NCBI GenBank assembly: GCA_020137815.1
Contig: CM035359.1
Location: 4,712,001-4,776,000, forward strand
Reading direction: 5' to 3'
Source: Hormiphora californensis
Taxonomy: Eukaryota; Animalia; Ctenophora
DNA: 64,000 nt
Shown here: piece by piece, positions 43,107-49,100 of the stretch
Numbering within the stretch: position 1 is the stretch's first letter
Layout: every line of letters begins with the position of its first letter
Translations under genes and position numbers: made by a program
The notes under the pieces: model-generated
What the model saw: the letters and a program-made list of their open reading frames with translations, nothing else
Databases searched by the model: none
Told to the model about the DNA's origin: nothing

Positions 43107-46100
43107 ATGGATCACGGAATGCCGGAGGAGATTATGGAGGGAGAATGGACGGAGGAGTTCGACGATGAAAAGGATTCAAATTTGTTATCGATTGAACAGT
43201 TTGAAATGGGAGAGGCTGGAGACATGGAAGAGGAGGACGAGATAGTTTATCCTGGTACGTTTTATATGATGCAGCAGTCAGCAAATCTATTGATTCGGGC
43301 AGATCATCCTCCAGACGCAGCAATCGCAAACAAACTAATAAATATGTTGATGACACACGATTATTACTTGCCTTGCCCGACCCTGTTTGATGGGTTGAAC
43401 AAAACAAGATTATGACACAGTAAATAGAGTGTTGATGTTTAATATTTTCCCTAGGTGTTGGTGAGTGCCTGTACGTACAATGGATTGAAGAGGAAGAATC
43501 TGAAGAAGCACCGGGCTGGTATTTTGGGAAAGTTGAGAGCATCGCGGATGGACTTCATTGTATTGTGTACAGTGACCAAGCTACAGAGAGGATCGATCTA
43601 ACCAAGGTATAACACTCATTTTATATGCAACAATTGATGTTTACCAAACATGATATATCTGGTATTAACCGTGTTATTCCTCTCTCCAAGGTCAACTTCG
43701 TGATTGCCAAGCAAGGTTCCCGATTCTACTCATCCACACGTCCCAAGCCATATAAAGGAAAGACAAAGAAAGCTAGCCAAGCAAAAGCCCGTAAGAATCC
43801 CTCTCATATCATCCTTAATCAATTTTAAAAGCTGAAGGAGGGTTCCCTTTTTCGTGATTTTCAATTTTTTCCCTGCCCGGGTGATGTTTTTAGCACGCAC
43901 GTGCTAAAAAGATCATTCAGGGTTTAGAAATCAGCAGATTGTGTAGTTAACTAAAATGTCCGTCCGTCCGTCCACCGTTACACATAGCAACAAAGTCTGC
44001 TCCTTCATAAATCTTTCAACTCACACTTTGTTGATGCAACAAAGGAAATGATTAACACACATTGTGGCGCGCAATTACTCACTCGTATCACTTCCTACTT
44101 TCACATGAAATCACTTTGGGTACCCTACAGCCGTACCATGACGTGGTAGCAAGTCTTCCAAGCATGGAACTACTATCACACAACAATTGCAAGTGACTGG
44201 TGTTAAGATTACTGAGGCATGAGGGTAAAGGTGAAGCGCTTGGTCACCAACTAGGGTCTCCTAAGCAACTGTCTTGGTTATCATAGCAACTGCCTTGGTT
44301 ACCATAGCAACCACCCTGGTTACCATAGCAACTAACATCGTATCAGCCAAAAATTGCTCTTAGAGTGCAAAATTCATCGGAAAATCTGAATTTGAAGCTT
44401 AGTTATCAATTTTACACTCATCTGGGGCAGGGAAACACCGCATTATGAATACATAATGCAATAATTCTTGTTGGTTACTGTCCGACAAACACCTGTACCA
44501 CCCTATTATCCCCCTCAGCACGTGTAGCTCGGAAGTCTGCCCCGCCAGTAGCATCACGACAACAACCCGCAACTGCTAGAATTGTGGAGGAGGATGAGGA
44601 TGATTTGGACGATGTTCCTGTTGCACAACGAGCTGCTCACAGTGGTAAGTGATGTTCCTGTTGCACAACGAGCTGCTCACAGTGGTAAGTGATGTTCCTG
44701 TTGCACAACGAGCTGCTCACAGTGGTAAGTGATGTTCCTGTTACACAACGAGCTGCTCACAGTGGTAAGTGATGTTCCTGTTGCACAACGAGCTGCTCAC
44801 AGTGGTAAGTATTTGAAGAGAGTTCTTTCACAATTAGTTTAGCATAATATATCAATTCACTTGGTGAGTGCAGCGCGGCTAAACGAAGCCTGGGATGTCA
44901 TCACCAATCAATTCTCACAATCCACAGAATAAGTATAACTGCTTAACTCGCTAATTGGGAGGGTGTATTTAAAACTATACACGAATCGAGTAATACAGTA
45001 ATTGTCAATTGATGTCCACACAGTGGCCTTTTGGTGGTCACTAAGAATTTGACGAAAATTTTCTTTTGCACCTATCTGGTAGCTTTTTTGACGTAGAATC
45101 AAATGCACCCCTCACTCATGCCTTGATTTTTTGAGGAAAGTGGTGTTTTTCCAAAAAGAAGGGTAACTGAAAAATTTTCGAAAAAATTTTTATGAGCTTA
45201 TCTGGTAGCTTTTTTGACGTAGAATCAAATGCACCCCTCACTCATGCCTTGATTTTTTGAGGAAAGTGGTGTTTTTTCAAAAAGAAGGGTAATTGAAAAA
45301 TTTTCGAAACAAGAATAACTGCATTATGTTCCATAATGCTATATGTTTCCCCGCCAACCTTTTTTTCCATGACCATCTAATGTGAAGGCGGGACAGAGAT
45401 TTCCGATGATTTATGAATCACTCAAACCGTATAGAACAAATCCTTGTGTTTTATTAGCACTAAATTACGTGCCACATTGCGCGGCTCACATTTCCTGAAA
45501 ACGTGGCATTGAAGTATTTGATGAAGGAGCAACACCGTTGTCCCTCGCAACTGAGCGTGTTACAGCCGGTTTTGTGACCGTGACACCTCACTAGTATGTA
45601 AAATTGTCGAATTCTAAACCCCTATGCCTTTTTGCAAAAGGCATCTGGGTGAATGCCTTCGGCATTCACCCAGGCGGGGAAAAAATGTTTATGAGCTTAT
45701 CTGGTAGCTTTTTTGACGTAGAATCAAATGCACCCCTCACTAATGCCTTGATTTTTTGAGGAAAGTGGTGTTTTTTCAAAAAGAAGGGTAATTGAAAAAT
45801 TTTCGAAAAATTTTTATGAACTTATCTGGTAGCTTTTTTGACGTAGAATCAAATGCACCCCTCACTCATGCCTTGATTTTTTGAGGAAAGTGGTGTTTTT
45901 TCAGTTTTTAGTCTTTTTAGGCTTCTTTGACAACCATATTTAAAATTTAGCTGGAGCAGGTGAAATGGGGATCCATAACAATTTAAATGTGGTTGATAGT
46001 AAGAAATCGAACAAATTTATATCTCATTCAAAATTTTTTTTTCAAACTTCATCCAGGGCGTTTTTATGGTCAAAAAACGAAGAAAACTTGATTTTTCGAC

Positions 46101-49100
46101 CATAATATACAATAGTACGCACTTGAAACCTTTTTTATCTGAAAGGCCAGACAATTTCCTATATTTTGGTCTATAAGACATCGATGAGGTTCGATGAGGA
46201 GGCTGGGGAGAAAGCGTTAAAGAAGGCGTGTTTGTTTACTTTAAAAAAACGATCTTTCAAAAGTTTGAGACCTAACTAAACACGTATTCCGACCTTATTT
46301 TACATGTAGAATCGATTGCCGATAGAATTGGGACTCTAATATTGAAGGATAACGGTGAAAATCACATGTTGTTAGACCATGAATTTTGTTAAGCTTGGAT
46401 TATCCGATGGGTAGACACTAGACATGTTCCTGCAAAAAGGAATTATACATTTTAACGCCTTGGAGAGGTTGGTGATGTTCATAGACGGCTGAATAAAACT
46501 CGCTTCATAACGATAAAATGTGGAAATGAGTTAATAAACAGAAGGATTGAAAACAGAGCTCTCAGCAGAAGAAGGACTTTACCAGGGTGTCCATGTGATT
46601 CATGGGTCCTGTTCTGTTGTTACATTGTCCTTTAGAGTGCCCGGGTGTATGGCACAACTGACATTTCACCCCTACAGATAGCCGGTGTTCTGTCAATTCG
46701 GGGTCACCGATAATGAACAGCCTTCTTATGGTGTCTTTGAGGTTGTCCGTTTGCGAGGTTTTTCTAGCGAGGCGTGACCTGTAAACAAACACGCCTTCTT
46801 TAACGCTTTCTCCCCAGCCTCCTCATCGAACCTCATCGATGTCTTATAGACCAAAATATAGGAAATTGTCTGGCCTTTCAGATAAAAAAGGTTTCAAGTG
46901 CGTACTATTGTATATTATGGTCGAAAAATCAAGTTTTCTTCATTTTTTGACCATAAAAACGCCCTGGATGAAGTTTGAAAAAAAATTTTGAATGAGATAT
47001 AAATTTGTTCGATTTCTTACTATCAACCACATTTAAATTGTTATGGATCCCCATTTCACCTGCTCCAGCTAAATTTTAAATATGGTTGTCAAAGAAGCCT
47101 AAAAAGACTAAAAACTGAAAAAACACCACTTTCCTCAAAAAATCAAGGCATGAGTGAGGGGTGCATTTGATTCTACGTCAAAAAAGCTACCAGATAAGCT
47201 CATAAAAATTTTTTCGAAAATTTTTCAATTACCCTTCTTTTTGAAAAAACACCACTTTCCTCAAAAAATCAAGGCATGAGTGAGGGGTGCATTTGATTCT
47301 ACGTCAAAAAAGCTACCAGATAAGCTCATAAAAATTTTTTCGAAAATTTTTCAATTACCCTTCTTTTTGGAAAAACACCACTTTCCTCAAAAAATCAAGG
47401 CATGAGTGAGGGGTGCATTTGATTCTACGTCAAAAAAGCTACCAGATAGGTTCAAAAAAATATTTTCCTTAATGACCACCTACTCCCATGAAAAAGGCCA
47501 CTGTGGTCCAGACCTATGTGATGTGACCTATAATAATAGATTGTCTAAACACTATCTAGTGATCCTCTCATTATTTTCAGCAAGTCACCACATTAGTGTC
47601 TAATACATTTTCCCCTCAGCAGGTCACCACAACCAGCCCCAGGGTATAGTCCAGAAGGTGCTCAGAGAAATGGATAGAGAGGAGCAACAGATGGGTTAGT
47701 AGAGTACTGAGAATTTGATAAAGTTGCTTTCCTTTTTTAAAGGAAAAAAGTCCGTGACTGCTGCGTGAAAGTGATCACATGTACAACTTGTACATATTGT
47801 ATTGTACAGTACATGTAACTTTTTATCATAGCGCTGGCAAGCGCCCGGGGCCCAATCCTCCCTCCCCCCAACCATCCTTCCCTTAAAAATGTCCATTTTC
47901 CAAGCATTCTTGCTTCCATTGAATGGAAAATCGAAATTGCGAAAAAAAATCTTTTGAATTTTTTGAAAATTTTGACAGCGCTACTATACTTATTGTCTGA
48001 AATCGGCGATTTCAACTTAGTTTTAGACAACCTTCTCGTTGTCCTACGAACATGCCGCTTGGTAGTTCGTGTTGCCTTGACACCTAGAGCACACGTTTAA
48101 AATTTCATGCAAATCGGAGTTACGGTTTTTGCGCTACAGATGGTCGTATTTTAGACAAAATGTCCGTTTTTAGCGTGACGAACCACCGTAAAGTAACGAC
48201 TTTTTTGCGTACACGATGGAGGTCACAGTTTTAAAGCTATCATCATGAAACTTTGGGAGTCGGTAGGTTTAGTGGTGTACCTCGTATTAAAGCTTGGACA
48301 GAGAAAACGGACAGTCATAACAAAAGTTATGACTGTCTTAAGCCTTCCCGTCGTTCTACGAACACGCCGCTTGGTACGTTGTGTTGCCTTGACATCTCAA
48401 ACACACGTTCAAAATTTCAAGCAAATCCGACTTACGGTTCTTCAGTTACGTGCATCTGACTGTATTAAGATTTAAGACGATTTTCAAAAAAACCTAGAAA
48501 AGAGCAAATTAAACTTTAAATCATGATTTTATCACATATATTTTGCCAACGTAGGTCAACTGCTGTATTTTCAGATATAATTGGAAGTCATATCTAGATT
48601 TATGATTGTCTTAAATTTAAGACGATTTTAAAAATGCCTAGAAAGAAGCGTTTCAGAGTCTAGATTAACATTGAATCAGATTTATTTTATAAAATAAGGT
48701 TTACTGCCGCATTTTCAGTTATAATGGGTAGTCATATCTAGAGTTATGACTGTCTTAAATATAAGACGATTTGAAAAAACCGAGAAAAGAGCGAATTAGC
48801 ATCTAGAACCTGATTGTATCAGATATATTTGATTATCAATGCTTATCCTTGATCGTTATCAGTAACTAATAATCAAAATCAGAGAATAATCGTGGAGAAC
48901 CAATCACGGATAACTAATAAATAATAGTAATCGCGGATAACTACTTAACCACGACAACTCATCGCGAATGAGTAATATGATAGTTACCAATCGCGGATAG
49001 CTAATCGCAAATATAGCTAATCGCGATAGCTAATCGCGATAGCTAATCGCGATAATTAATCGCAGATAACTTATAACGGATTCGTGATCAGTTATCCGCG

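Follow-up and report, generated by a model that had tools for sequence, protein, structure and literature searches.

A DNA transposon of 2,487 bp lies at positions 45019-47505 of the stretch of Hormiphora californensis DNA analysed here (assembly GCA_020137815.1, contig CM035359.1, positions 4,712,001 to 4,776,000; these 64,000 nucleotides are referred to as the window), and its two ends carry the same heptamer and the same inner box at distances that differ by exactly 11 bp. It is almost certainly an internally deleted, non-autonomous Transib element, placed in Subgroup I by its ends and by the knuckle tail of a 73-residue transposase remnant, and the asymmetry of its ends is very probably family-wide. 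Our analysis also leads us to regard it as likely that the family's transposase, presumably supplied by an intact copy not seen here, prefers a long end paired with a short one.

Asymmetric ends and their spread in the family

Both tips of the element read CACAGTGGCCTTTT (45019-45032 on the plus strand and 47492-47505 on the minus strand), and a perfect 5-bp target-site duplication, GTCCA, flanks it on both sides (45014-45018 and 47506-47510). The preliminary description of this DNA was right about the tips and their offset but left the duplication unmentioned. At the short end, which is the 3' end relative to the transposase remnant described below, the heptamer CACAGTG (45019-45025) agrees in 7/7 positions with the consensus of the recombination signal sequence (RSS), and is followed by a 7-bp stretch (45026-45032) that is identical at both ends and occupies a position like that of TR2, a concept introduced for the heptamer-adjacent stretch (Martin et al. 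2023, PMC10629977), with a putatively similar function. The inner box GGTGGTCAYTAAG occupies tip positions 15-27 at the short end (45033-45045, plus strand) and 26-38 at the long end (47468-47480, minus strand), where 11 additional bp (47481-47491) separate it from the heptamer and its 7-bp neighbour (47492-47505, the 5' end relative to the remnant). It had been described as starting 7 bp after the heptamer on the left and 18 bp after it on the right, and the tip alignment bears out these distances and the resulting 11 bp, with TCATGGGAGTA as the single best placement of the gap. Equally correct was the statement that the box is not the RSS nonamer: the positions that a nonamer would take, 20-28 and 31-39, read TCACTAAGA and TCATTAAGG, only 4/9 bases agree with ACAAAAACC in the 12/23-bp register, and the best nonamer match (6/9, at a spacer of 26) is found at one end only.

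The 14-mer alone is a weak signal: CACAGTGGCCTTTT, with up to two mismatches allowed, matches the window only at the two tips, and shuffled sequences gave a mean of 0.39 matches and reached two in 6/100 cases. However, the window has 214 left and 232 right sites that resemble the heptamer, and of these only one pair within 9 kb combines tip similarity with a 5-bp duplication, and this pair is the element's ends, whose pairing is thus no chance match. Nor are the ends an assembly error: in run X3, both junctions from flank to box of this copy are spanned by short-read contigs without a single difference, an agreement that is not independent insofar as X3 may be the source sample of the window. 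The two arms align with 92% identity over about 300 bp, and the box belongs to this long inverted repeat, so its likeness at the two ends of one copy is expected and by itself no sign of selection. Directly after the box lies a second indel of opposite sign (8 bp more on the left), and consequently the subterminal repeats are only 3 bp out of register, the first unit starting at tip position 55 at the short end and 58 at the long end.

Short-read contigs allowed the comparison to be extended to other copies. Of the 14 runs listed, 12 contain part of the stretch; they come from two organisms (A and B) and from a metagenome of marine origin, and no RNA data set was listed among them. Four runs, one per study, were compared at each end: X3 and X5 (organism A), X7 and X11 (organism B). 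Contig depths, summed over the bins specific to the short and to the long end, were 3228 and 1563 in X3, 9487 and 10885 in X5, 16160 and 17673 in X7, and 17867 and 8811 in X11, against a depth of 36-38 for the unique flanks in X3. The preliminary description had considered that the 11 bp might be an indel private to this copy; as far as the contigs tell it is not, both end types being present at high, comparable depth in all four runs and in both organisms. Between heptamer and box no indel is listed, whereas substitutions are frequent, and insertions and deletions occur, in the link just inside the box. One X7 contig covers the entire long end without gaps, and in X3 a mini copy (loose end at 45061), in which the short end is fused to the outer 22 bases of the long end, is a second copy that joins a short and a long end. 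The flanks of the element are uncovered in X5, in X7 and, but for one contig, in X11, which is no proof of an empty site.

Several features of these contigs weigh against a family-wide, functional asymmetry. The X3 mini copy has no long-end box and one X11 short end lacks most of the box, as judged from the loose ends listed; the contigs are too short to show end pairing per copy, which is seen in two copies only; the long/short ratios (0.48 in X3, 1.15 in X5, 1.09 in X7 and 0.49 in X11) scatter twofold and express contig depth, not copy number; and the aligner may clip indels near contig ends, the loose ends being counted among the alignments listed. Two single contigs carry 10 gap letters at positions that are not given.

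Transposase remnant and relatives

The only transposase sequence found in the window is what is left of the C-terminus of a Transib transposase of Subgroup I, on the minus strand (46562-46783, 73 codons at 46565-46783 plus the stop codon). The preliminary description had overlooked it, and the link with RAG proposed there is stronger than stated, a remnant of RAG1/Transib type being present. Homology starts at 46780, about ten residues past the conserved catalytic-glutamate motif, which is deleted, and the tail forms a CX2CX3GHX4C zinc knuckle of CTT1 type. With only these last 73 codons kept, and the alpha11-alpha12 region of ZnB and the region resembling the nonamer-binding domain (NBD) deleted, the copy is non-autonomous. 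The reading direction of the gene is away from the long end and towards the short one.

Searched with HMMER against 1.84 billion representatives, the remnant gave 37 matches at E<=0.001. Six are, or were treated as, ankyrin/repeat or retro-element proteins and were set aside; the other 31 are transposase-like and have their C-terminal ends in the region where the remnant ends. By a strict pattern, 23/37 combine the last core motif with a CCGHC-type knuckle. Pfam RAG1 was matched by 7 of the 12 transposase-like hits that were scanned (E<=0.01), two of which exceed the curated cut-off, and a profile built from the remnant and 15 of its hits recovered HzTransib (E 5.8e-49), BbeRAG1L (2.6e-33) and RAG1 (1.7e-22) from the PDB. 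The homology with the RAG1 core is therefore indirect, through the matches: the remnant alone retrieved knuckle proteins from the PDB but no Transib or RAG chain, and from Pfam just a weak knuckle match (E 0.056), while its zinc-knuckle clusters in the ESM Atlas, with scores below 0.9, are a lead only. One match, P0019 (E 4.5e-5), agrees by eye with the printed C-terminal part of MleTransib_2823.

The closest match, P0003, is only 53% identical, which indicates that the gene of the cognate transposase was not among the sequences found. Comparing the remnant with longer proteins left none of seven candidates, a search with P0003 left one of 617 (at 38%), and a search for related loci in viral contigs with P0045 gave four pattern matches and no confirmed one. 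P0045 is a full-length relative that aligns in register to the NBD of RAG1, a match weak on its own (i-E 0.27, the independent E-value), and lacks the GRP of the NBD hook. Together with P0004, P0009, P0017, P0030 and P0034 it belongs to a set of Subgroup I-like Transib transposases from metagenome collections, several of them near full length (583-745 residues).

The element has the 5'-CAC termini with an RSS-like heptamer, the 5-bp GC-rich duplication known as a Transib feature (PMC1131882) and, in the remnant only, the RAG1-core homology of the Transib superfamily; an intact DDE transposase gene is absent from this copy, and the superfamily includes non-autonomous copies. Subgroup I was defined by asymmetric ends and a CTT1 knuckle, with ctenophore members included (Tao 2022, PMC9435367), and the element has both asymmetric terminal repeats and the CTT1 tail. 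The preliminary description stated that some Transib terminal inverted repeats show similar offsets, and five families with RSS12- and RSS23-like ends, from which the 12/23 rule was seen as derivable, have been reported (Kapitonov and Jurka 2005, PMC1131882). Transib5, Transib2_AG and TransibN1-3_AG, some of them non-autonomous, share with our element the asymmetric 12/23-like ends and 5-bp GC-rich duplications, but in them the nonamer-like box is A-rich and the short end lies 5' (PMC1131882); our element carries its long end 5', and its box is not rich in A.

The closest likeness is to MleTransib_2823, MleTransib_3931 and PbaTransib_0868, which have CACAGTG tips and bipartite asymmetric ends, the longer one lying 5' of the gene; the Mle elements also share the C-terminal motifs and knuckle of the remnant, MleTransib_2823 the CATTAAG at positions 32-38, and PbaTransib_0868 the 5-bp duplication. 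Counted by eye in the text of the Tao 2022 supplement (MleTransib_6236 and the Hydra elements left out), the last base of the inner box lies at long/short positions 38/28 in MleTransib_2823 and 37/27 in both MleTransib_3931 and PbaTransib_0868 (PMC9435367), compared with 38/27 here; the long end is 5' in 4/4 ctenophore elements, whose box sequences differ. The window element differs in its offset of 11 bp, not 10, in its box and spacer sequence (CACAGTGGCC has no match in the excerpted supplement), in being non-autonomous and in its 126-bp tandem units and 560-bp inverted arms. Judged by sequence, it is a family separate from the published ctenophore Transibs; the family is new, its architecture already published. 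The predicted proteins of PbaTransib_0868 and _8175 end without a CCGHC knuckle, and _0868 still has a 10-bp offset, which makes it a natural test of box reading by the NBD only.

More distant systems share the layout. PflRAGL-A has a heptamer with a conserved adjacent stretch, a 10-bp asymmetric spacer, an inner box and a CCGHC-tailed transposase, but also a RAG2L, a GRPR/K-containing NBD and an AT-rich nonamer, none of which is seen in the window element (PMC10629977). RAG1/RAG2 and the 12/23 RSS have in common with it the consensus heptamer, the 11-bp offset, a box at the nonamer register and a homologous catalytic core; the window element lacks the nonamer (4/9), shows no RAG2 and is associated with transposition, not recombination.

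Proposed pairing of long and short ends

We hypothesize that a transposase dimer would cut at the heptamers, as RAG and BbeRAGL do, while its C-terminal zinc knuckle would clamp the 7 bp next to the heptamer in the same way at both ends. An N-terminal NBD-like dimer may grip both inner boxes, one helical turn apart and at the positions of the RSS nonamer, and a tilt of this dimer would favour the asymmetric end pair. A preference, rather than a strict rule, is to be expected, since the element has a knuckle and no sign of RAG2, and the asymmetric pair is likewise favoured by ProtoRAG (PMC8289069). In support of a functional offset, the arms are 98.9% identical over 562 bp and yet the tips stay unequal, and the offset is kept between families despite diverged box sequences. 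The missing GRP hook of P0045 fits a box that is no A-tract nonamer, although both also count against the proposal, as does the fact that the cognate full transposase, and with it its NBD, was not seen in the searches. Further points on that side are that the four ctenophore families are related and not four independent trials, that the 12/23 rule is lost when RAG1 acts without RAG2 (PMC4840297), and that knuckle-bearing enzymes were proposed to be relatively insensitive to asymmetry (Martin 2020, PMC7204232).

Two alternatives concern the nature of the element and of its family. Descent from a RAGL (RAG1L plus RAG2L) transposon would fit the knuckle tail, common to RAG1L proteins, and a RAG2L could have been lost with the deleted middle. 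We nevertheless hold it to be highly improbable, because the remnant does not carry the C-terminal core motif of RAG1L type: after the last core helix it has the Transib-type xDP, as in HzTransib and the Mle proteins, and not the WLYTSK of RAG1 and BbeRAG1L; moreover, no RAG2-like trace was found in the 320 bp behind the stop codon, and the ctenophore proteins were classed as Transib (Tao 2022, PMC9435367). Hardly more credible is a family composed of symmetric short-short and long-long subfamilies, with the window copy as a chimera. The contigs cannot phase the two ends, and two of the four runs have half the depth at the long end, which would suit such a mixture, but the other two are near-equal, a perfect 5-bp duplication surrounds the window copy, a second short-plus-long copy exists, and the published ctenophore elements for which both ends are available, three in number, are all asymmetric with the same polarity.

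The other alternatives accept the asymmetry and differ in what the transposase makes of it. The offset may be inherited but inert, the enzyme reading the outer 14-17 bp only, through its catalytic core and zinc knuckle, so that long/short pairs are a founder legacy. The identity of the outer 14 bp at both ends, the knuckle in the remnant, the insensitivity predicted by Martin 2020 for such enzymes and the occurrence of box-less copies all agree with it, and conservation across a young family requires no selection. We consider it unlikely, given that an offset of 10-11 bp, with the box at the nonamer position, recurs in ctenophore families with diverged boxes, including PbaTransib_0868 with its knuckle-less predicted protein, that near-identical arms have not erased it, and that indels are tolerated just inside the box while none is listed outside it. 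At the opposite extreme, cutting could follow a strict RAG-like rule without RAG2, only in a complex of one short and one long end. The exact 11-bp offset, the consensus heptamer, a box at positions 20-28 and 31-39, the persistence of the offset across families and the NBD-like segment of P0045 speak for this. We find it more doubtful still: the loss of the rule by RAG1 alone stands against it, coupled cleavage by RAG needs E649 and the GRPR/K hook (PMC10629977), which P0045 lacks, and ProtoRAG shows a preference only. That a RAG2-free ctenophore Transib enforces true 12/23-type pairing, reading a non-A-tract box through an NBD without the GRPR hook, is an equally improbable proposition. Preferential pairing of one long and one short end thus stays the reading that we favour.

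Surroundings of the element and bearing on the 12/23 rule

Inside the short-end box, a link that is 8 bp longer than its right counterpart and variable among family copies (45046-45072) leads to 1.9 copies of subterminal 126-bp tandem units (45073-45309) and, across a unique filler of 369 bp (45310-45678), to a second run of about 1.8 copies (45679-45903), the link and both runs being on the plus strand. The filler is inserted into a run of A within the left tandem array and ends near a 29-bp hairpin (45645-45673); it gave no Pfam match below E 0.05 and no Rfam match, and was possibly captured during gap repair. A 335-bp inner inverted segment follows, with its left copy at 45904-46239 (plus) and its right copy, identical in 334/335 positions, at 46781-47115 (minus); between them lie the remnant and, behind its stop codon, a stretch of single-copy sequence (46240-46561, minus) with no RAG2-like or other Pfam match. 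The right array, 2.8 copies of the 126-bp units plus a link, occupies 47116-47467 (minus). The 126-bp units and the 335-bp segment together make up the 562-bp inverted repeat (45679-46239 and 46781-47341), and the remnant begins where the right arm has its inner edge, identifying that edge as a deletion junction. We also considered the tandem units as repeats of the box and rejected this, their resemblance being degenerate, with no box copy within three mismatches outside the tips. A 20-mer of the 126-bp unit has no match in prokaryote genomes and one in viral contigs, with no likeness past the 20-mer; the Rfam scan gave no match; and a metagenome scan for the heptamer-gap-box arrangement gave 23 loci, none of which aligns to the element by blastn, as expected of chance matches.

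Other repeats are present in the window. Five 40-bp tandem units with CACAGTG in each, and without partner ends found, lie 200 bp left of the Transib element (44611-44810). Two copies of 890 bp (1099-1988 and 37805-38694), identical in 95% of positions, bounded on either side by TTAA and ending in CCCTTT...AAAGGG, are taken by us to be a piggyBac-like non-autonomous element. An element of 1.4 kb (16265-17664), whose inverted arms of 610 bp are 97.9% identical, is likewise bounded by TTAA; it has GGG ends and is presumably Kolobok-like by these. A TA-bounded element of 439 bp with perfect 125-bp inverted arms (49237-49675) has in its spacer an unpaired CACAGTGGG end (49419-49425) with no partner within 9 kb. 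A dispersed repeat of about 110 bp has five copies of 92-98% identity (3523-3632, 18099-18203, 23788-23898, 39880-39990 and 49928-50019) and a diverged sixth (911-1043). The repeat at 32940-33120, with three CTCGCAGGCTCG copies, is common to a Pleurobrachia bachei scaffold: 32958-33004 matches its bases 52-98 in 44/47 positions, with likeness extending by eye to about 33120 (PMC9435367 supplement); of two motif probes for this repeat, one gave no match. Taken with the ctenophore links of the Transib, this likeness would point to a comb jelly close to Pleurobrachia as the probable host. We also identified exons of a papain-family cysteine protease (55210-56200, minus) and of a YHYH-domain protein (18913-19329, plus).

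The issue at stake is whether the 12/23 rule was inherited from a transposon or arose with RAG2: RAG1 alone loses it, and yet RAG2-free Subgroup I Transibs keep an offset of one helical turn. No functional test of how Subgroup I ends pair came to light in the open-licence literature, most subscription papers lying outside this scope. Among the ctenophore elements compared, the family described here is the closest match to RSS geometry, with a consensus heptamer and exactly 11 bp, and the offset is seen across the family in both organisms. It looks recently mobile, and an intact transposase may therefore exist. The family is useful as a RAG2-free test substrate for the origin of the 12/23 rule. 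If a strict rule without RAG2 were true, the 12/23 rule would be older than both the capture of RAG2 and the nonamer. The closest model of it in nature would then be the family described here, which looks recently active, has a high copy number and combines consensus heptamers with an offset of exactly 11 bp.

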